This document shows positions 1,378 through 30,058 of a stretch of DNA of 48,290 nt, in pieces. The stretch lies in assembly GCA_019057815.1 (NCBI GenBank), contig JAHLWR010000026.1, forward strand, positions 1 to 48,290, given 5' to 3'. Under the pieces are notes generated by a model. That model saw only the letters and a program-made list of their open reading frames with translations, searched no databases and had not been told where the DNA came from. Every line of letters starts with the position of its first letter. The first letter of the stretch is position 1. The position numbers and the translations under genes were made by a program. The stretch is from Candidatus Heimdallarchaeota archaeon. Its GTDB lineage: Archaea; Asgardarchaeota; Heimdallarchaeia; Heimdallarchaeales; Heimdallarchaeaceae.

Positions 1378-4335
1378 TTAGAATGGTTTTCCATAATGTC
1401 TAAATGCACCCCATCTAATTATGGAATGATTATTCTTATTTCTTTCTTGGGTGTATTTTTCATAAATAAAATATCTTGCATCTCTTAGAGCTTCTGAAAT
1501 TGGTTTCTGATTAAACAACTCATTATAGAAAACTTGGAAAAATTCTCTAGTGGAATCATCTAGAATTTTCCATCCTGTCAGAATAGTATTTGTACACCCT
1601 GCTTCCACAATTCCTCTAGTTAACCCATAAACTTCATCACCAACTTTTGTTACAACTAATCCTGTTTCACAAGCACTTAAAATAAGTAATGGATTATTAT
1701 CTAAATTAATATCCAAGGGGATCATATTACCATAGAGATTTATTATTTCACCAGATTCTCTGAATATTAACGAGCTTAATTCAGGATTATCACCATTGAA
1801 CATTGCATGACCTGCAAAGTGGATAATCTGATATTTGTTTTTTCTTAGAAGTTCAATGAAATCACTTAAATTAGCTTCTTTACCAATCAATGGTTCAACT
1901 TTAAGCTTATTTCTTTCAAGTATATCAACTATATATTCTGCTTCTTTTTTAGCATCAAGTAAACTACTTGTTATTCCTTCAGTTGGGTTTCCAACTACTA
2001 ATGCTCGAGTTGCATTTCTTTCTTTTGTTTTAAAACTTGATACTAAAGTTTGTAGGTTAAATGTTCTCGAAAAATTATATTTCAAACCCAAATATTCATT
2101 TCTAATCAGAATAGTCTCTAATGGAAAATTATGCATAAAACCAGTAGGTACTATAGTTAAAAACGAGATTTCTTTACTATCCAGGTACTTTATTAATTCT
2201 ATCGGAAAGTAGATTTCTGAAGAATTTTTTCCTATTTTCCTAAATCTTTCCTCCAGTGCATTATTATGCCACTTAAATTCTTTCTGAACATTTTCTTGAT
2301 TTATTGGGACATTTTTTGAGATTAAATGATTCAAAATATTGATTCTAATATTCTGGTACTCATTAAGAACTCTCACTAGATTCTTTTTAATTGCAGTGAA
2401 TTTTTCTTCATCTATTTTATACTTTATAATCTTTATATTTTGCTTTTTTTCAATTATAAATATATACATCTCATTTGTAAGGATATTATGATGATATTCA
2501 AGAATCATCCAATCTTTAATTAATATCTCTTTAAACTCTTTAACAATCACCAAAGGATCTGATGGAAAAATTATTCCTTTTGATGGAAATTTAATCCTCA
2601 TTTCATCCTGAAGTATTTTTCTTTGTTTGTTTAAATTTTCTAATCTTTGTAATAAAAATTCCATTTTTGAATCTAAATGTTTTTTTGATATTATCTCATC
2701 CTCATAATCAGATCGTATCCTTGATATTTTCAATAAGGTTCGTTGGATATGCTCTTTTACTTGATTTAATCGTTCTACATGATTTTTAAAATCTTCATTG
2801 ATAGAACCTTTATGAATTTCACCATAATTTATCATTTCTCTCCCTTTAATATATTCAGAATAAGCGAGTGCTTCGCCTATCTTATTCAATTCAATACAAC
2901 AAGAGACAATTTTATTTAAAATTTGAATCGAAGAATTTTCTCTCATTTCAGTTCGCATAATTGATAGAGGGGGAAGTGAGTCTAGAATGTCTTTGATTTT
3001 GAATGATTCTTTTAGTTGTTTCAATGCTTTTGAATAGTTTCTTTGAACAATATGAATATCAGCTATATTAAGTAATGTAGTGGCTTCACCTATTTTGTTT
3101 CCTATCTTCTTAGATAATTTCAATGATTTCCTATAATATTTGAGAGCAACACTGAATTTTTTTGTTAAAGATAAGAAATTGCCAATATTGTTCAAAACAG
3201 TCGAAACGCCTAACAAATCTTGAATTTCTTTTCGAATTTTTAGCGATGTAATCAACCTCTCATAGGCTTCATCAAATTTTTTCTGCTGTTTAAACAATGA
3301 TGCTATATTATCTAATGTTGAAGCTATACCCTTTCTATCATTTAATAAATTACTAATCTCCATAGATTTATTAAAATACTCCATAGCGTCAGTATATTGT
3401 TTTATCTTTTGGAAAACACTTCCCAAATTATTATAGACTCTACCTTGCCCTTCTTTGTTCTCTATCTCAGTAAAAATCTTTAGAGCTCTTTCATGATATT
3501 CTAGTGCTTCATTGTAATTTGCCATAACATGAAAAACATTTCCAATATTATCTAGAATTGTCGCAACACCAAGTTTATCTCCAGTTTCTTCAACTAGGGA
3601 AAGAGATTCTTGGTATTTTTGTAGTGACTGATCAATATTCCCCAAATGAAAATTGGATAGTGCTAAATTATTGAGTGTTGCTCCAATTTCTCTAGCATTT
3701 TTTAGAGCATACTGAATTTCTTGAGCTTTATAATAGTATTCTATTGCTTTCCCAAAGTTACCCTGGTGATAGTATATCCCTCCTAAATTGTTATAGCATG
3801 AAGCTTCAGTTTTTCTAAAACCAGCTTTCTTTGAGAGTTCTAGAGATCTTTTAATAAAACTCTTAGCCATTTTATAGTTTCCTTGTTTTTGATTTAAATC
3901 ACCGATAGCAAGAAAAATACCAGATTTTAATCTAAGATTTTTAACTTCTTCCAAAATCACTTCAACTTCTGAAAAATACTCTTGAGCTTTTTTGTAATCC
4001 CCCAAATCCTGAAAAAGCGCTCCCAAATTGCTTATTATTATAGAGACTAACCCCTTATCACCTATTTTTCTACTTATTTCTAGAGCGAGATCATAATTTA
4101 TTCTAGCTTTTTTCATTTCTCCCAATTGACTATTAATACTAGCAATATTATTCAGAGTATTTGCAACTTCTTTTTTATTATCTACCTTCTTAAGTGAATT
4201 AAGTGCTTTATTGTAATATTCTATTGCTTGAATATACTTTCCCCACTCACTATATATGTTACCAAGATTATTAAAAATAACACCTTCAAGCTCTGAATCA
4301 TCAATTTCAACCAATAATTTTTGAGAATGAAGCAA
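1378..4335 (-). CDS. TPR-CHAT (caspase-like protease) protein, possibly N-terminally truncated
   Basis: About 11 TPR repeats (NNLGxxY...A..YY.KAL), a coiled coil, then a CHAT catalytic dyad 'IIHFAGHA' / 'LSACETG' and the C-terminal 'WGAF' motif. TTG start falls inside a repeat. Confidence 0.9.
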   Translation of the reverse strand: MLHSQKLLVEIDDSELEGVIFNNLGNIYSEWGKYIQAIEYYNKALNSLKKVDNKKEVANTLNNIASINSQLGEMKKARINYDLALEISRKIGDKGLVSIIISNLGALFQDLGDYKKAQEYFSEVEVILEEVKNLRLKSGIFLAIGDLNQKQGNYKMAKSFIKRSLELSKKAGFRKTEASCYNNLGGIYYHQGNFGKAIEYYYKAQEIQYALKNAREIGATLNNLALSNFHLGNIDQSLQKYQESLSLVEETGDKLGVATILDNIGNVFHVMANYNEALEYHERALKIFTEIENKEGQGRVYNNLGSVFQKIKQYTDAMEYFNKSMEISNLLNDRKGIASTLDNIASLFKQQKKFDEAYERLITSLKIRKEIQDLLGVSTVLNNIGNFLSLTKKFSVALKYYRKSLKLSKKIGNKIGEATTLLNIADIHIVQRNYSKALKQLKESFKIKDILDSLPPLSIMRTEMRENSSIQILNKIVSCCIELNKIGEALAYSEYIKGREMINYGEIHKGSINEDFKNHVERLNQVKEHIQRTLLKISRIRSDYEDEIISKKHLDSKMEFLLQRLENLNKQRKILQDEMRIKFPSKGIIFPSDPLVIVKEFKEILIKDWMILEYHHNILTNEMYIFIIEKKQNIKIIKYKIDEEKFTAIKKNLVRVLNEYQNIRINILNHLISKNVPINQENVQKEFKWHNNALEERFRKIGKNSSEIYFPIELIKYLDSKEISFLTIVPTGFMHNFPLETILIRNEYLGLKYNFSRTFNLQTLVSSFKTKERNATRALVVGNPTEGITSSLLDAKKEAEYIVDILERNKLKVEPLIGKEANLSDFIELLRKNKYQIIHFAGHAMFNGDNPELSSLIFRESGEIINLYGNMIPLDINLDNNPLLILSACETGLVVTKVGDEVYGLTRGIVEAGCTNTILTGWKILDDSTREFFQVFYNELFNQKPISEALRDARYFIYEKYTQERNKNNHSIIRWGAFRHYGKPF

Positions 4336-7099: not shown

Positions 7100-7660
7100 T
7101 TAACCTCCATTCGTCATAATTACTCCGATTACACCACTCAATGTTAGTAAAACAATCCAAGAAATCAAGTTTACCAATAGCATTAATATTGATGTTTTAA
7201 CATATTTCATTTTAGTACTTGCCAATCTTGATACAGCGTAAGATTGCTTTACTAAGTCCTCAAACCAATCCTCGTAATTTAATTTATCTAGTTTTTCTTT
7301 ATATTCATTACTTGTCTTGAAATTCTTAATATGTTCGAAGAAAAGATAACCAAGTCGTTTTTTTTCAGGTTTTTCTTTTGGTTTTACATTAGGAAAATAT
7401 GTTAAAACTGAAGCTGTTATACCCAATATTGAAAATAACGCAAAAATACCAAAAAAAGCAAAATAGCTATTTTTGAGTGCATTATTATTCACTAATGCTG
7501 TTGCTTTTTCAAATGTTCCCATAAGTAATGATCCTGCAAGACCCACGCTAACCAATAAACTTTGAATAGTTATCGAAATAGTTGCTTTAATATCAGCTTG
7601 TCTGATTGTATTCTGTGAGTTTTCATATGCCATTCTAGTGTGATTGAATTTTCTTTCCAT
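7100..7660 (-). CDS. pycTM: Pycsar transmembrane effector (PycTM/DUF5706-like)
   Basis: 'NTIRQADIKA' N-terminal motif, three hydrophobic helices, 'LFFEHI' and 'Q...VSRLASTKMKY'. Lies 3 bp upstream of the cyclase. Confidence 0.75.
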   Translation of the reverse strand: MERKFNHTRMAYENSQNTIRQADIKATISITIQSLLVSVGLAGSLLMGTFEKATALVNNNALKNSYFAFFGIFALFSILGITASVLTYFPNVKPKEKPEKKRLGYLFFEHIKNFKTSNEYKEKLDKLNYEDWFEDLVKQSYAVSRLASTKMKYVKTSILMLLVNLISWIVLLTLSGVIGVIMTNGG

Positions 7661-20090: not shown

Positions 20091-20198
20091 AATAAAATCT
20101 CTCTTATGATATTATACAGCTTTTTTACTTTAAAAATCGTTTGAATTGTCTCGTGTTTAGACGTAAAAACTTTTTAGCATATATCAATCTTCACAACT

Positions 20199-20795
20199 AT
20201 GGAACACTATTTGACTACTCCAATTTCCCCAGAGGATCTAACAACAATCAAGATAGGGGATATAGTGTACATAACGGGAACAATAATTACAGCTCGAGAT
20301 GAAGCTCATTTAGAAGCTTTGAATCTTCATAAAGAAGGTAAAAAACCTCCAGTTGATTTTCAAGGTAATGGACTTTTTCACTGTGGTCCTGTTATGAAGA
20401 AAAATGCGCAAGGCGAATGGACTGTTGTAGCAGCTGGTCCTACTACTTCAGCTCGTATGGAAATCTTCCAAGATGAATTCATCAAGGTTTTTCACCCAGG
20501 AATCATTATCGGTAAGGGTGGTATGGGAGAACGAACAACAAAAGCATGTCAAGAAGAAAAATGTATTTATGGCTACTTTACAGGTGGAGCAGCATTACTC
20601 GCTGCTGATAGAATTACCAAAGTAAGAGATGTCTTCTGGTTTGAAGAACTAGGAATGCCAGAATGTCTATGGCTATTCGAAGTTGAAAACTTTGGTCCTT
20701 TAACTGTAACTATCGATACTCATGGTGGAAATTTGACTGAACAAATCAAAAGAAAGATAGAACAAAATAAAGACAAGATTTTGCAAAATTTGTAA
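20199..20795 (+). CDS. Fe-S hydro-lyase (fumarate hydratase/tartrate dehydratase) beta subunit
   Basis: 'TARDEAH', 'HCGP', 'GPTTSARM', 'GKGGM', 'LGMPE', 'IDTHG'. Confidence 0.93.
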   Translation: MEHYLTTPISPEDLTTIKIGDIVYITGTIITARDEAHLEALNLHKEGKKPPVDFQGNGLFHCGPVMKKNAQGEWTVVAAGPTTSARMEIFQDEFIKVFHPGIIIGKGGMGERTTKACQEEKCIYGYFTGGAALLAADRITKVRDVFWFEELGMPECLWLFEVENFGPLTVTIDTHGGNLTEQIKRKIEQNKDKILQNL

Positions 20796-20813
20796 AAGAA
20801 AAATCTTGTCTTT
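20769..20813. repeat. perfect 14-bp inverted repeat spanning the beta-subunit stop codon (possible terminator or element end structure)
   Basis: AAAGACAAGATTTT (20769-20782) / AAAATCTTGTCTTT (20800-20813). Confidence 0.75.
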
Positions 20814-20923
20814 CTCACTTTATATTTCATAAATCTTAATCGCTTTCTACATCCCCTTAATTAGTATTGTATTTTTCACTAGTTTTTAAATCAATTTAAA
20901 CATAATATTATGAAGTTATTATA

Positions 20924-23761
20924 ATGAATACAAATACAAGGACAAATGAAAGTCAAGATCATAAACAGATAGAGTTGGATGTTTTGTATAAGAAAATAGA
21001 GGAAGAATTAAAGAAGATTAAACAAGTAAAAAAACAAATACAACAATTAATGTCACAAACACAATTAAGTAAAAAGAAACAAAGATTTCCTGTTCTTAAT
21101 AATTCAGAAATTGAGGAGCTTAATAAACATAGTCTAGATAAGAAACTAGAGCAAAAACGAGAATTTAGTATGGAAACTAAAAAACGAAATAATTTAGACT
21201 TTGTAAATAGTAGATTTGCTATACAAAACAATCTAATGGAAAACGAAAACCAACTTAAGAAGGTTCTAATTTCACGTCTAAAAGAGAGCATTGAAAATTC
21301 AAAACACCTCAGAAATGATGTAAAAAATTTGCATGGAAAATCAGAAATTAGTTGTAGTAGGTGGGCTAATTATCTCATTAATGATATTGAAAGTCTTAAC
21401 AAGATTTTTGGTCCAATTAATCAAAATGGAAAAAGAAATGTAAATGAGCTTGGAATACATCTATTAAAGGATTTCAATGATTCAAAAAAAGAAAACCATC
21501 AAAAGTTTCAGAAAACTGCTGTTTCTTCCGGCTTAAAACAATTTTCAACACCTCTTGAACCTTCAGAATCTGATTCATATGTGAGAGTACTATTGACTAA
21601 ATTTGGAGTTAAAGGAATTACAAGTACTCATACTGCAGAGAGTTTTCTAAAGGCTCAAATTAAACTAAACTTCGAAGAAGATAAAATGCGACGGTTTTGG
21701 AATATCAATGGAGTTCCATTAAAGCTGGATAAGGTATTAATAAGAGGATTAAAAGGAAAATTTTCCAGTTCAAATGGATTTGATGACTTAATGTTAGGAG
21801 TAATTGGAAAAGGAAAATCTGCAAAATATGATCTTAGGACAGTAGAAATGAAAGTAGGGGAAGATTTGGGTGGTTTTTTTGACTATATTAGAACAAGCAA
21901 AAATAGCAAATTTAATACACAAATATCTGAGGATATTGATTCATTTTTGACTGTAAAATGTAAGAAACTTTCGAAATTAAAAATTAACTTTATGAGAGTA
22001 CATGATATAGTGGTAGCTTTAAATAACAAATATTTGTTTACAACCTCTGGTGTTGGTTTTAATTTTAATATAAAAATTAAATCGGGAAATTTACGGAATG
22101 CTCTGATAGATTCTGGGCTTCCCCAAACTACAATTAATAGAATCCTAAAAGGAGCTATAAGACAAAACCAATTAATTTCCTTAATTCAGCATGGTAATGC
22201 TCATAAATTAGCAACAAAAAACGGATATTTCACTGTTGCAGATGAAGCTGTCCAGGAAATAGAACTTAAAATAAAAACTAGAATAAATAACAATGATAGA
22301 TTTGTATCCATCAAAGTACACCGAGATGCATTTCTACCAAACTTTGTAAAAACGAAAGATGGAACCATAAGACTAACACTAGAAGGTTTTGATTCAGTTC
22401 TTCAAAATATGAAAAAAACAGGAAAGCAATTATCTGATAAATACAAAACCTACTTAATGCTTAATTCTATCTTGAAAAGTGATTTAGATAAACTCTCTCC
22501 TTGTTTGATTCATGATGGTATATCTGAACATGAAGTAATCAAAAAATTAAGTGGCATGCAAAGAACTGCCTACTATGAAATAATGAAACTTAGTCAAAGA
22601 GGGAGTATTAAGGAATTTTTAGTTTTTAATTGTGGGATGATGTTTCATTGTCTTGAGACTCTAAATAATTTAGGACAAAAAACCTTTGATAAATTACATA
22701 AATACTTCGAAAGTAAAAGTGTTGTGCCATATAAATTTCATCAGCATTGGGAGTGTTCTTACTCACTTGAGAATATTTTCAAAAGAATTCACATAACAGA
22801 TAATTCTCATTCTTTTAATGGTTGGAGTAAATTAAAAACAAAATTTTTTGGAAATCTCTTAACAAGTGATAGTGTAAATGTTGAAACTGAAGAAGAAATT
22901 TGGCAATATTACTTAGATAATCCAAATTGGATACAGAAAATATTAAGAGATTTGACACCACCATATAAAATACCTGATGGTTTTAATCTAAATCATAAAT
23001 CAAATTTGGTTCACCCTCTAATTTTCTTTGATAGAAAAACAATGAACCCTGTTGAAGTTGTAGGCTATAATGAAAGATTGCCTTGGTTAGGTGTTAAATT
23101 GGATTTGAATCAATATATTAAAACTAATAAAACTATGAACAAAATGCTTTTACAATTTCCAATAAAAATCAATGTAAGAGGCGTTGAATTAAGTAACTCT
23201 AATAAGATAGTTGGTGCTTGGAAAAAACGACTGGTTCAATCTGGTATTCCAGTAGAACAAGTAAATTTTCTAGGATCTAAATATAATTTTAGAAAATCTG
23301 AAGGAGATTTCAGCATCAAACTTTTTTTTGCAATAGTATTTGAATACCAAAAAGTTTGGAGAGACTTTTTCTCTTGGATACTAGAATATATCCAAACCAT
23401 AGATGATTGGTCATTCGTTTTACCTAGTTCTATTGAACCTCGAAATGGGTTTAGAATTCGGGTTGTTGGAAAACAAGTTCAGTTTGATTATACGGATAAT
23501 GGAAATTGGAAAGAAGTACTTCTAGGAATTGGAACAAAACATGGTGATGATATTTGGAATATTAGAAAAGAAATAAATAGAACATTTATTCTCCCCATAC
23601 AAAATAATTTGTTTAGTAAACTGATAGATGACATTCAATTTCAAATATGGAAAGAAGTACTTAACTCTCCTCCGGGTATCTATTGCAGAAACATGGGATT
23701 TCATAGTTTCAAATTGGAAAGATATTTGATTCAGATCATTCGAGTTCTGATCGAAATCTAA
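20924..23761 (+). CDS. large hypothetical protein; N-terminal coiled coil, putative PD-(D/E)xK nuclease motif and XRE-like HTH
   Basis: 945-aa open frame. 'TAESFL...GFDDLML...VEMKVG' and 'SGLPQTTINRILKG'. The domain calls are motif-level only. Confidence 0.6.
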   Translation: MNTNTRTNESQDHKQIELDVLYKKIEEELKKIKQVKKQIQQLMSQTQLSKKKQRFPVLNNSEIEELNKHSLDKKLEQKREFSMETKKRNNLDFVNSRFAIQNNLMENENQLKKVLISRLKESIENSKHLRNDVKNLHGKSEISCSRWANYLINDIESLNKIFGPINQNGKRNVNELGIHLLKDFNDSKKENHQKFQKTAVSSGLKQFSTPLEPSESDSYVRVLLTKFGVKGITSTHTAESFLKAQIKLNFEEDKMRRFWNINGVPLKLDKVLIRGLKGKFSSSNGFDDLMLGVIGKGKSAKYDLRTVEMKVGEDLGGFFDYIRTSKNSKFNTQISEDIDSFLTVKCKKLSKLKINFMRVHDIVVALNNKYLFTTSGVGFNFNIKIKSGNLRNALIDSGLPQTTINRILKGAIRQNQLISLIQHGNAHKLATKNGYFTVADEAVQEIELKIKTRINNNDRFVSIKVHRDAFLPNFVKTKDGTIRLTLEGFDSVLQNMKKTGKQLSDKYKTYLMLNSILKSDLDKLSPCLIHDGISEHEVIKKLSGMQRTAYYEIMKLSQRGSIKEFLVFNCGMMFHCLETLNNLGQKTFDKLHKYFESKSVVPYKFHQHWECSYSLENIFKRIHITDNSHSFNGWSKLKTKFFGNLLTSDSVNVETEEEIWQYYLDNPNWIQKILRDLTPPYKIPDGFNLNHKSNLVHPLIFFDRKTMNPVEVVGYNERLPWLGVKLDLNQYIKTNKTMNKMLLQFPIKINVRGVELSNSNKIVGAWKKRLVQSGIPVEQVNFLGSKYNFRKSEGDFSIKLFFAIVFEYQKVWRDFFSWILEYIQTIDDWSFVLPSSIEPRNGFRIRVVGKQVQFDYTDNGNWKEVLLGIGTKHGDDIWNIRKEINRTFILPIQNNLFSKLIDDIQFQIWKEVLNSPPGIYCRNMGFHSFKLERYLIQIIRVLIEI

Positions 23762-23841
23762 TTATGATACACATTTGGAAAACTACAAGTATATATCATA
23801 AGATTTTAAACTTAATCATTTCTTGGGAACTTGTGGATTCA

Positions 23842-23979
23842 CCTGAATGTTTATGGGTTTATGAAGTAGAAAACTTCGGACCTTTAACTATTACAATCGA
23901 TATTCATGGTGGTAACCTTACTGAAGAAAGTATAAAAAACATCGCTAAAAATAAGGAGAAAATATTGAAGGAGTTGTAA
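23842..23979 (+). pseudogene. orphan duplicate 3' end (45 codons) of the hydro-lyase beta subunit
   Basis: PECLWVYEVENFGPLTITIDIHGGNLTE... is 31/45 aa identical and colinear (138 bp) with 20658-20795. Confidence 0.9.
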
Positions 23980-23982
23980 AAG

Positions 23983-24861
23983 ATGATAGATATAGCTCAA
24001 GTTATTGAAGATACAGCTGCTCAGTTATTAAAGATAGCAGCAACAAAATTACCAAGTGAAGTAAAAGAAACTTTATTGAAAGGAGAAGAAGAAACAGAGG
24101 GAACTTTAGGAAAATCACAAATGCATGCAATTAATGAGAATGTAAAACTTGCTGAAACACATAGTAAGCCTATGTGCCAAGATACAGGTCTAGTGTCTTT
24201 CTTTATAAAAATAGGCGATAAATTTCCATTACGATCAGAAGTTAAGACTGCCCTCATAAAAGCGACAAAGAAAGCAACTCCCAATATTCCTCTTAGACCT
24301 AATGCTGTAGATATGTTTAAAGGAAACACAAAAAACAATGTAGGGTTGAGAGGATATGTTCCTTGGTTCTACATAGACCTAGTAGAAGGAGATAATTTAG
24401 AGATAATCGCGATGCCAAAAGGTGGTGGTTCTTCTAATGTTGGAAAGATGAAAATGGTTCCACCAGGGAAAGGGATTAAGGGAGTTAAAGAGTTTGTAGT
24501 GGAAGCAACAGCAGCTGCTGGACCTCTTGCTTGTCCACCATATACAATAGGAGTAGGTGTTGGGGGTGGCGAAGATATGTGTATGAATCTCGCAAAAAAA
24601 TCACTTTTAAGACCATTATATCAGTATCATGAAGATGAGAAGATAGCTGAATTAGAAAAAGAATTGGTAAAAACTTTGAACAAATTAGAGATAGGTGCAA
24701 TGGGATTAGGTGAAGGACCTTCTGTTTTGGATGTTCATATGGAGTTTGCAGCTAGACATCCTGCATCTTTACCAGTTGGAGTCGTTATCTCCTGTTGGGC
24801 TTTAAGACACGCAGGTGCAACTATTGATAAAGAAGGAAATGTTGAGTGGCATCCACATTAA
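23983..24861 (+). CDS. Fe-S hydro-lyase (fumarate hydratase/tartrate dehydratase) alpha subunit
   Basis: 'PMCQDTG', 'LRPN', 'KGGGS', 'ACPP', 'HPAS', 'CWA.R'. Confidence 0.93.
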   Translation: MIDIAQVIEDTAAQLLKIAATKLPSEVKETLLKGEEETEGTLGKSQMHAINENVKLAETHSKPMCQDTGLVSFFIKIGDKFPLRSEVKTALIKATKKATPNIPLRPNAVDMFKGNTKNNVGLRGYVPWFYIDLVEGDNLEIIAMPKGGGSSNVGKMKMVPPGKGIKGVKEFVVEATAAAGPLACPPYTIGVGVGGGEDMCMNLAKKSLLRPLYQYHEDEKIAELEKELVKTLNKLEIGAMGLGEGPSVLDVHMEFAARHPASLPVGVVISCWALRHAGATIDKEGNVEWHPH

Positions 24862-28132: not shown

Positions 28133-30058
28133 TTGATGTCCTCTGTTTCAAAGGTGTCTATATTAGGACTTAGTAGTAAAGTTCTAAGGACATACACCTT
28201 AGGTGTTAAATTTGAAGGTGATAAAAGAACAAAGAGGACAAAAGAGATTGAAGCAAACAAACGCGTAAAAGGTTTACAAGTAAGACAAGAAGACATGATT
28301 TATAATACAAAAACCATTAATACAGCTCTAAATATCGCAAGAGAATTACCAGATAAAGACAGTAAATTTGCACCAGCCGTTATCCAAGAACACACAAAAA
28401 ACTATGCTAACATTGGGAATAGTGCATATTATCAGCTTTTCATTGCAGCTAAAGGTACCATTGATAGAGAAAAAAAAGTTTCTGATATTTTTCAATTATT
28501 ATTAAAATGGAAATCCCAAGCTTTAGAGTGGATTATTTTCGGTAGAAGTCCTAGAGTTGAAAACATTCTGACTTTTCAATGGAAAATAAAGCGAATCTAT
28601 ATCATTAATCTATTAACTAGCTCTCGAAGACAAATAGATAATTTTGTACCTCAGGAAATACACTTCAATAAAAGTCTTCCAAATCTTACTGAAAGAGAGA
28701 TCAAAAGTGCTTTCTCCAAATTCTATCAGAAAAAGTGTAAGGAGTTATCTTTAAAAAAAATGACATCTAAAGAGAAATCATTTCTTGAAAAATTAAAGCT
28801 CTTTGATAATAATCTAGATTTTATATCTTCTAACCTACATGAATGGAATAATATGGAGCATAAATCTCGTTGGCAAAGTCTCAAAAAACTTAGTAGAGGA
28901 ATAGCAAAAACATTTGGTAATGAAAGTAGAAGATTATTCTCTCCTTTAAGATCGATTATACTCTTCGCACTTTCTTCAAAATTAGAAGAAACTGTCTCTA
29001 AAATTATTAAAAATTCTGACCCAAAAAAATGTGTTTCTCCTCCATTTAAAACAAAAAAGAAAGGAAGATTGCCAATAATCCTGTTAATGAAGAAAGATTA
29101 CGTTATTGTAAGACCTGGTAATGCCAAGCAGATGACTGAACTAGTACAAAGAGATGGCAGTTTTGAACTTGGGTTTCCATTAAAAGGTTATTCTAGAATA
29201 AATGGTAATCTAGTATTTCCAAGAAAAGTAAAGGAATATATCAGAAATGGTGCTAAGATAAAATTATTGAAAATTCAACATGGAAAAGCTCCAAGTTATA
29301 AAATCTGTGTGTCTGTGGTTTTGGAAGGATCTAATTCAATGTTTATTAGTCACAAACTTACTAAAAAACTTCTGAAACCAATAAGAACAAACTCTTCAAG
29401 TGTACTAGGTTTGGATATAAATCGTCTTAGTGACTATATTCTTGCATTTTCAAATCAAATAAGAATACCTAAAGAAATTAAGATATTGATAAGAAAATAT
29501 AATCACCTGAACTCAAGAATCATTCCACAGCTTAGTTACGCTTTGAAAAACAAAGGTAGAGATAAGAATTCACATGATTACTGCAAATTGAAAGGTGAAT
29601 TAGACAGGGTTTATTCAAAAAGAAAGAAGATTTTATCTGAAATCAAGAATTTACTACCACATCTGATAGCTGCTGTGTTAATAAAAAGTGGTAGTTGTTA
29701 TCTATGCATTGAAAATCTAGATTTTGATCCTAGAGGAAAAAAGGGGGCTCTTGGGAAAGCGTTTTATTCCATGCCTGATGAAATAGACATTTTCGAAAAA
29801 GCTATATTAATTGCTACAAAAATTTCTGGAAGAATTATTCGCTTAATAAAGGTACCACCCCAAGGCACCAGCACCTATCATTTCCAATGTAGAGGAATTT
29901 TAGATAGAACCAATCATTATTATGATAAAGCTTTGTGTAAGAAATGTGGAGATTATGTTGATACTCACCACAATGCAGCTCGAAATATTAAAGATAAAGG
30001 AGAGCAACTATTGCAATCACTAAATCGTCCCTCTTCGCATGCGAGGGTTACAGAATGA
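28133..30058 (+). CDS. tnpB: large TnpB/Cas12-like RuvC protein (IS200/IS605/IS607-derived RNA-guided nuclease family)
   Basis: N-terminal 'RTYTLGV', RuvC-I 'VLGLDIN', RuvC-II 'CIENL', 'GTS', Zn-finger HxxC...CxxC, RuvC-III 'DTHHNAARNI'. 641 aa, with no transposase gene adjacent. Confidence 0.8.
   Translation: MMSSVSKVSILGLSSKVLRTYTLGVKFEGDKRTKRTKEIEANKRVKGLQVRQEDMIYNTKTINTALNIARELPDKDSKFAPAVIQEHTKNYANIGNSAYYQLFIAAKGTIDREKKVSDIFQLLLKWKSQALEWIIFGRSPRVENILTFQWKIKRIYIINLLTSSRRQIDNFVPQEIHFNKSLPNLTEREIKSAFSKFYQKKCKELSLKKMTSKEKSFLEKLKLFDNNLDFISSNLHEWNNMEHKSRWQSLKKLSRGIAKTFGNESRRLFSPLRSIILFALSSKLEETVSKIIKNSDPKKCVSPPFKTKKKGRLPIILLMKKDYVIVRPGNAKQMTELVQRDGSFELGFPLKGYSRINGNLVFPRKVKEYIRNGAKIKLLKIQHGKAPSYKICVSVVLEGSNSMFISHKLTKKLLKPIRTNSSSVLGLDINRLSDYILAFSNQIRIPKEIKILIRKYNHLNSRIIPQLSYALKNKGRDKNSHDYCKLKGELDRVYSKRKKILSEIKNLLPHLIAAVLIKSGSCYLCIENLDFDPRGKKGALGKAFYSMPDEIDIFEKAILIATKISGRIIRLIKVPPQGTSTYHFQCRGILDRTNHYYDKALCKKCGDYVDTHHNAARNIKDKGEQLLQSLNRPSSHARVTE

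Follow-up and report, generated by a model that had tools for sequence, protein, structure and literature searches.

In a contig of 48,290 nucleotides (nt) from a Candidatus Heimdallarchaeota archaeon of the family Heimdallarchaeaceae (JAHLWR010000026.1, plus strand; this whole stretch is called the window, and its coordinates are used throughout), the 3' end of a gene for a fumarase-type hydro-lyase beta subunit (fumB) occurs twice, and the two copies flank one large open reading frame (ORF). The question raised by this locus is whether the insert is a mobile element that enters a housekeeping gene and supplies it with a new end, and, if so, by what means it spreads. An original prediction, made from the sequence alone, had read the locus as a homing-like selfish element, and this reading is largely supported by the comparisons reported here. 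The insert is a genuine mobile element that is specific to its site, repairs the gene it enters and encodes a nuclease-like protein of a new family. It is probably a free-standing homing-type element, in which a site-specific PD-(D/E)XK endonuclease of about 935 amino acids (aa) brings about spread by break repair.

A hybrid beta gene and a displaced native tail

The last 45 codons of beta are indeed present twice (31 of 45 aa and 103 of 138 nt identical), within a repeat pair of 142 nt (20658-20799 and 23842-23983; 75% identity, spacing 3184), and the TAA of the downstream copy ends at 23979, leaving a gap of 3 nt before the alpha-subunit ATG at 23983. The copies do not, as had been thought, differ mainly by synonymous recoding, since 14 of 45 residues differ. 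Head, tail and alpha gene were compared with G001, an empty-allele genome of the same genus as the window. The beta head (441/459 nt) and alpha (842/879 nt) closely match this genome, and the tail of G001 is identical to the downstream copy at 130/138 nt, against 102/138 nt for the upstream copy. In tail trees, the upstream, incoming tails from the various loci lie on one side of a branch with support 98/96, the downstream tails intermix with empty alleles by host lineage, and the window's downstream tail forms a clade with G001 at 100/100. An upstream tail of native origin was rejected, as forcing the window's upstream tail together with G001 failed the approximately unbiased (AU) test (p-AU 0.005). 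The upstream tail is foreign and the downstream tail host-like, and the intact beta gene is therefore a hybrid of host head and foreign tail, the polarity that the original prediction had proposed. The features of the locus are as follows.

20199-20660, +: host-derived 5' part of the fumarase (hydro-lyase) beta gene, codons 1-154 (441/459 nt to G001; Fumerase_C)
20661-23844, +: whole element, 3184 bp, comprising replacement tail, spacer, nuclease ORF and right end (by comparison with the G001 empty allele)
20661-20795, +: element-borne replacement 3' end of beta, codons 155-198 plus stop (102/138 nt to the G001 tail)
20924-23761, +: putative PD-(D/E)XK nuclease ORF, 945 aa (homologs, conserved motif, fold matches)
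21776-21853, +: predicted active site G285-F286-D287 ... E308-x-K310 on a beta-hairpin (homolog alignment, model)
23800-23810, +: box resembling a B recognition element (BRE) and TATA box at the element right end, facing the alpha gene (in 13/13 fumB elements)
23833-23835, +: element-supplied start codon in frame with the displaced tail, GTG here and ATG in relatives (10/13 loci)
23845-23979, +: native 3' end of beta, displaced (identical to the G001 tail at 130/138 nt)
23983-24861, +: fumarase alpha-subunit gene of the host (Fumerase; 842/879 nt to G001)

Completed by its foreign in-frame 3' end, beta (20199-20795, +) is intact at 198 aa. Comparison with the G001 empty allele places the left switch point of the element at about 20649-20666, and the true right junction lies at 23845, i.e. 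at codon 155. The Pfam search assigned beta to Fumerase_C and alpha to Fumerase; it returned no family match for the nuclease ORF and no recombinase or transposase family match in the element, which has this single ORF. None of the 25 longest inverted repeats pairs the element ends. The earlier statement that no integrase, transposase or terminal repeats are recognizable stands, and an insertion sequence or transposon was rejected, given no transposase, no end-pairing inverted repeats and close homologs at one site only.

The locus is not a chimeric assembly of two strains, because a single contig of 4329 nt from an independent run (X6) spans 20154-24476, with 140 letters differing from the window, and separate, independent assemblies show the same gene order. 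The reported ORF length of 945 aa is correct for the window but is not the ancestral one: the nuclease of relatives has 935 aa, the ancestral stop lies at 23727-23729, and in the window ORF 2 nt are deleted after 23679, a frameshift by which the final 14 conserved residues are replaced. Both bases are missing from the probable source run as well and are carried by the three independent runs X3, X4 and X6, and the frameshift is therefore private to the window strain. Runs X3 and X6 also show G to A at 23833, in the element start codon.

Empty alleles and movement between host lineages

Among 31 genomes of the family, seven are occupied and 20 are empty, with beta directly followed by alpha as had been expected of relatives; one carries a nuclease-free insert near the same site and three are uninformative. 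The ORF is no orphan, as first supposed: it has 13 close homologs at 47-96% identity, from Heimdallarchaeaceae or Heimdallarchaeota where labelled. Of the 11 that were looked up, ten immediately follow fumarase beta and one is on a contig too short to be informative; a displaced tail is present in every case where the contig extends far enough, so that the predicted position between duplicated gene ends was recovered for the close homologs, which among those looked up occupy this one site only. A pattern scan of metagenomes yielded one further locus, and one marine sediment run contained the empty junction at 20672 plus pieces of the element, the empty and occupied alleles probably coming from different strains. 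A deeper profile detected the nuclease family in 19 of 30 Heimdallarchaeaceae genomes and in a single genome from another host family; this search covered 400 genomes of the phylum with two candidates scored per genome, so that its picture of the family's absence elsewhere gives only a lower bound on presence.

The occupied hosts are scattered on the host tree. A single clade of occupied hosts was rejected (p-AU 5e-100), as was a clade of the hosts of the window's ORF subtype (p-AU 2e-62). Vertical inheritance from one ancestral insertion was likewise rejected. The groups seen in the upstream-tail tree recur in the ORF tree. Between the window and G014 the synonymous divergence (dS) is 1.41 for the head and 0.42 for the ORF, and between G014 and G022 the values are 2.16 and 0.46; G014 and the locus L008 are closely related (head dS 0.22), but the two deep ORF subtypes are divided between them. 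The nuclease ORF is under purifying selection, with a ratio of nonsynonymous to synonymous divergence (dN/dS) of 0.18-0.30. Displaced tails compared with their nearest empty alleles have a ratio of nonsynonymous to synonymous polymorphism (pN/pS) of 0.136, equal to that of intact tails (0.132), and were therefore functional until recently, which fits repeated recent arrival and not one old insertion.

Minimal fumB elements hold the nuclease ORF alone, and several others contain a cargo of exported proteins. Further rearrangements were seen around the same operon. Each of the inserts at L070:2087-6490 (G008) and L240:3539-7075 combines a beta tail with a complete alpha gene and two genes of cargo; behind it lies another beta remnant, which starts near codon 159. 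At L001:9942-10823 (G022) a 222-aa exported protein lies between alpha and a duplicated alpha tail (226-292), directly adjoining the fumB element. Decayed fumB tails occur upstream of fhs, far from the fumarase operon, in two genomes with empty alleles (L072:4200-4448 and L073:5101-5235).

Fixed junctions and a shared right end

In 12 of 13 loci the displaced remnant starts at the codon of Glu155 (P154|E155), the thirteenth being eroded by a few codons, and the site thus lies at the GMPE-CLW codons near which it had been placed. Mismatches to G001 rise from 1-3 to 6-10 per 30 nt in the block that holds the junction, and the first 30 nt of the remnant show 0 mismatches. Identical bases common to both junctions amount to 0-7 nt in ten distinct loci, and for this reason no att core can be recognized.

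These junctions bear on an integrase-type explanation, in which an island circle integrates into an att site within beta by a recombinase encoded elsewhere or by a novel activity of the ORF. A fixed site, replacement of the 3' end, variable cargo and stacked inserts (described below) are all traits of such islands. The element, however, has no recombinase family match, its two junctions have almost nothing in common, and its ORF has a conserved motif and, going by weak matches, a fold of restriction type; of the explanations considered here we regard this one as the least probable.

The precision of the junctions bears equally on the view that the ORF is a passenger, according to which one ancient insertion arose by homology-facilitated illegitimate recombination and was then spread by ordinary recombination. 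One-sided homologous integration is a described process (PMC3240628), tail duplications without the ORF are frequent in this genome (about 1% of its length), and nuclease-free cargo inserts are found at fumB and fhs. Ordinary recombination would, however, scatter its crossovers, and here they lie right at the junction even between lineages saturated at silent sites. The remnants are moreover host-like and barely decayed, and five different targets recur beside the same family, the four protein-coding ones broken in conserved motifs. We therefore consider a passenger ORF unlikely, and the same holds for the associated idea that the ORF is kept for some host benefit such as defence, PADLOC having given no match for it.

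Codon 156, next to the junction, encodes Ser in 11 of 14 incoming tails and Cys in 14 of 16 empty alleles and 12 of 13 remnants, a pattern to be expected of a new tail that evades recognition. In G007, the empty allele contains an element-type patch of about 30 nt at the junction, which may be a trace of conversion without insertion, or of loss between repeats. In empty alleles, the four most variable codons include 159 and 164; this was not counted as an arms-race signal at the target, because codons far from the site are equally among the most variable.

A purine-rich TTTAA box lies 44-65 nt before the junction in all 13 fumB elements, against a genome background of 0.09 per kb for a pattern that was drawn after the fact from these same fumB sequences. 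In 10 of 13 loci an in-frame start codon lies 32-34 nt behind the first position of the box, although its distance to the junction is 4 codons in one subtype and 11 in another. Eight right ends at the fhs, cysS, pepF and GTPase genes discussed below lack the box. An outward promoter and a short leader ORF at the right end may keep alpha expressed at fumB.

A predicted PD-(D/E)XK nuclease

The original description of the ORF as nuclease-like is supported by a conserved motif and by weak fold matches. D287, E308 and K310 are invariant in 14/14 close homologs, and in an alignment reaching down to 14-30% identity GFD is present in 23/23 covering rows and ExK in 21/23. A confident model of residues 180-919 built on the deep alignment (pLDDT 81.7) places both motifs on one beta-hairpin, with strands at model residues 109-115 and 122-132, so that the conserved Asp and the (D/E)xK lie on adjacent beta strands as in the PD-(D/E)XK superfamily. 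The best structural matches, all weak, were HamA (Z 5.2, rmsd 4.4, 140 residues aligned), PaqCI (4.5), MspJI (3.9) and NgoMIV (3.2), and six of ten Atlas structure rows belonged to the PD-(D/E)XK class, including a likewise weak match to Mrr_cat (TM 0.51 over 120 residues). Since the matches span model residues of about 40-430, the modelled core is seemingly split by an insertion of about 260 residues, which suggests a nuclease core interrupted by a large insertion. Nuclease activity is thus a well-motivated prediction for this protein.

Other searches added little. A full-length model from the 14 close sequences was poor (pLDDT 43), making a Foldseek search with it meaningless; the sequence search of the PDB returned no nuclease among its matches, and the scores of the Atlas feature search were all 0.85 or less. 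Two further family members deserve mention: the ExK motif reads NLK in L147 (G005) and in G004, and the family gene at L147:947-5239 is split by an inserted ORF of 483 aa that is TnpB-like by eye.

Distant family members at other target genes

Distant members or their remnants were found in inverted orientation between a full gene and its displaced tail at pepF (G003), a small GTPase gene (G007), cysS (G030) and fhs (G014), the pepF locus being free of cargo. In these four protein genes the breaks lie within conserved motifs (GP|FANIAHG, a GWH.EC motif, D|TGGQE and an NYPY motif). Six genomes contain between them eight fhs fragments that begin at about this GP|FAN codon. The fhs remnant of G014 is 91.9% identical to the tail of a near relative, compared with 83.7% for the upstream tail, which in turn is 93.8% identical to the tail beside an intact homolog in G018; the polarity is the same as at fumB, with the foreign tail upstream and the native tail displaced. 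Nuclease-free inserts stack at the fhs site. At L218 (G030:C22) two nuclease-free cargo inserts lie at the same fhs codon, each leaving a tail from FANIAHG.

The fifth target is the 16S rRNA gene. In the genome of the window, an exported protein of 1625 aa that ends in the nuclease module converges on the 16S 3' end (G000:C23:13389-18530, locus L104), and 347 nt at this locus, including 110 nt of 16S, recur 14.5 kb downstream (3670-4015). At L141, a similar giant protein meets a 16S end. At L105:6058-19944 (G000:C38), a 4628-aa exported giant ends in the module and converges on a zinc-ribbon gene; it lies behind another giant and a ParA-like gene, in a layout that resembles that of aloposons.

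These fusions are an argument for regarding the protein as an exported or orphan polymorphic-toxin nuclease that cuts conserved genes of recipients, repair from donor DNA leaving the inserts as by-products of competition. The same 750-aa module ends exported proteins of 1625-4635 aa with hydrophobic segments before the module, C-terminal remnants of the family are scattered in several genomes, and one low-scoring Atlas lead pointed to Tox-REase-7 (0.83, below the reliable range). The fumB form, however, starts with a charged helical segment, has no signal peptide and no adjoining immunity ORF, exported forms occur among distant homologs only, and the fumB element travels with its own replacement tail and a fixed right end. 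A toxin origin of the fumB inserts is accordingly very unlikely in our judgement.

A divergent subfamily of 980-1024 aa lies directly before infB (L089:7255-10329, L090:7804-10746, L091:5837-8794). A partner ORF of about 255 aa precedes it and no displaced tail accompanies it; the subfamily may have been domesticated, or its target may be a neighbouring gene. Elsewhere in the window, a possible defence island of low GC content contains unannotated ORFs along with genes for a TPR-CHAT (caspase-like) protein and a Pycsar-type membrane effector (1378-4335 and 7100-7660), and an ORF of 641 aa at 28133-30058 has a weak Cas12f1/TnpB zinc-ribbon match near its C-terminus.

Proposed spread by cleavage and repair

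In the homing-type reading that we favor, an occupied and an empty allele of fumarase beta would meet in one cell, and the nuclease would cut the empty one at, or immediately beside, the conserved codons G-M-P|E-C-L-W. The occupied allele would then serve the host as template for repair by homologous recombination: to the left of the break, pairing would involve the beta head of the donor, and to the right, its displaced tail and alpha. The recipient would thereby acquire a 3' end of foreign origin that is in frame, so that beta stays whole while the site is altered, together with the nuclease gene and any cargo. Its own tail would be pushed downstream, where the TATA-like box and start codon of the element probably restore alpha expression. 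The cleavage itself, the resistance of the incoming tail to it, the repair route, the activity of the promoter and the way in which donor DNA enters the cell are the parts of this scheme that we infer.

Several observations weigh against such a scheme. The window's incoming tail retains Cys156, and its differences right at the junction are all third-position; through the frameshift, the window nuclease has also lost the conserved C-terminal N-W motif. Every fold match is weak, with Z under 8, and Foldseek with the model of residues 180-919 found no match at E 0.001. To our knowledge, about 935 aa is far above the size of known homing endonucleases. Plain homing leaves unexplained why the module forms the C-terminus of giant exported proteins. 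About ten gene-tail duplications in this genome, roughly 1% of it, have no family member inside, and tail duplication alone is therefore common here. Finally, family members before infB, near lipA and near the DNA polymerase small subunit show no displaced tail. None of the three outcomes that the original prediction had named as contradicting it was encountered, namely unrelated contexts without duplicated tails, as judged from the close homologs, a vertically inherited upstream tail or a chimeric assembly. The cargo-bearing versions, the additional target genes, the promoter-like right end and the frameshift of the window copy were not part of that prediction.

A broader reading, tentative and in our view doubtful, is that the family constitutes a lineage-wide, integrase-free means of gene delivery, in which every subfamily would be tuned to the most strongly conserved motif of another essential gene and would open it to donor DNA that brings a replacement tail and surface-protein cargo. 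It is equally speculative that the targets of such delivery comprise fumB, fhs, cysS, pepF, a GTPase gene and 16S rRNA, with action also in trans building stacked islands, or that versions fused to giant exported proteins carry the cut to neighbouring cells.

Relation to known systems

If cleavage is confirmed, the element would add a new homing-nuclease family in a lineage close to eukaryotes. The proposed mechanism, if true, would explain how these genomes gain cargo without integrases, would mean that housekeeping genes, fhs and cysS among them, can bear foreign phylogenetic signal at their 3' ends, and would provide a set of related rare-cutting enzymes with predicted targets as well as a way to approach the giant proteins with this module at their end, which are so far unexplained. 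Searches of the open literature yielded no gene-repairing homing element that resides on an archaeal chromosome or uses a nuclease of restriction type. In the passages searched, papers on mobile elements of Asgard archaea describe aloposons, viruses and integrase elements, and no element of the fumB type.

Integrative elements that restore the 3' end of their target gene are known from Escherichia coli, where e14 and phage 21 occupy icd. The fumB element resembles these in its fixed site inside a housekeeping gene, its replacement 3' end and its cargo, and differs from them, and from the tyrosine-integrase elements of Asgard archaea (PMC11529989), in having no integrase match and no common att core. 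Aloposons of Ca. Heimdallarchaeum (PMC8813620) belong to the same archaeal family, and in the genome of the window a ParA-like gene is followed by two giant genes in tandem, the second of which has a distant homolog of the nuclease at its end; unlike aloposons, the fumB locus has neither giant genes nor a tRNA site. A giant-protein search of two single-contig genomes gave no match.

A putative restriction-type core in a selfish element with a conserved gene sequence as target would be shared with the PD-(D/E)xK and EDxHD homing endonucleases, represented by I-Ssp6803I and I-Bth0305I (PMC3384342). The fumB element stands apart from these in that its protein has no Pfam match and no nuclease among its PDB sequence matches, that it involves no intron or intein, and that its core is apparently split.

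The closest parallel is offered by the mobile-ORF (mORF) endonuclease elements, which make gene hybrids in fungal mitochondria, in atp6 of Allomyces macrogynus and in atp6, atp9, cox2 and nad3 of Glomus (PMC3630166). As at fumB, a foreign in-frame C-terminus is followed by a free-standing endonuclease ORF and then by the displaced native C-terminus, which matches that of kin, and in both systems kin have empty alleles and movement is horizontal. Unlike mORFs, the fumB element resides on an archaeal chromosome and not in a mitochondrion; mORF endonucleases are of the LAGLIDADG or GIY-YIG type, whereas the fumB-element protein is a PD-(D/E)XK-like protein of about 935 aa with the motif GFD...ExK and no Pfam match. 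The fumB element can further carry kilobases of cargo, its right end resembles a promoter for the next gene of the operon, and its nuclease module is also found fused to giant exported proteins.

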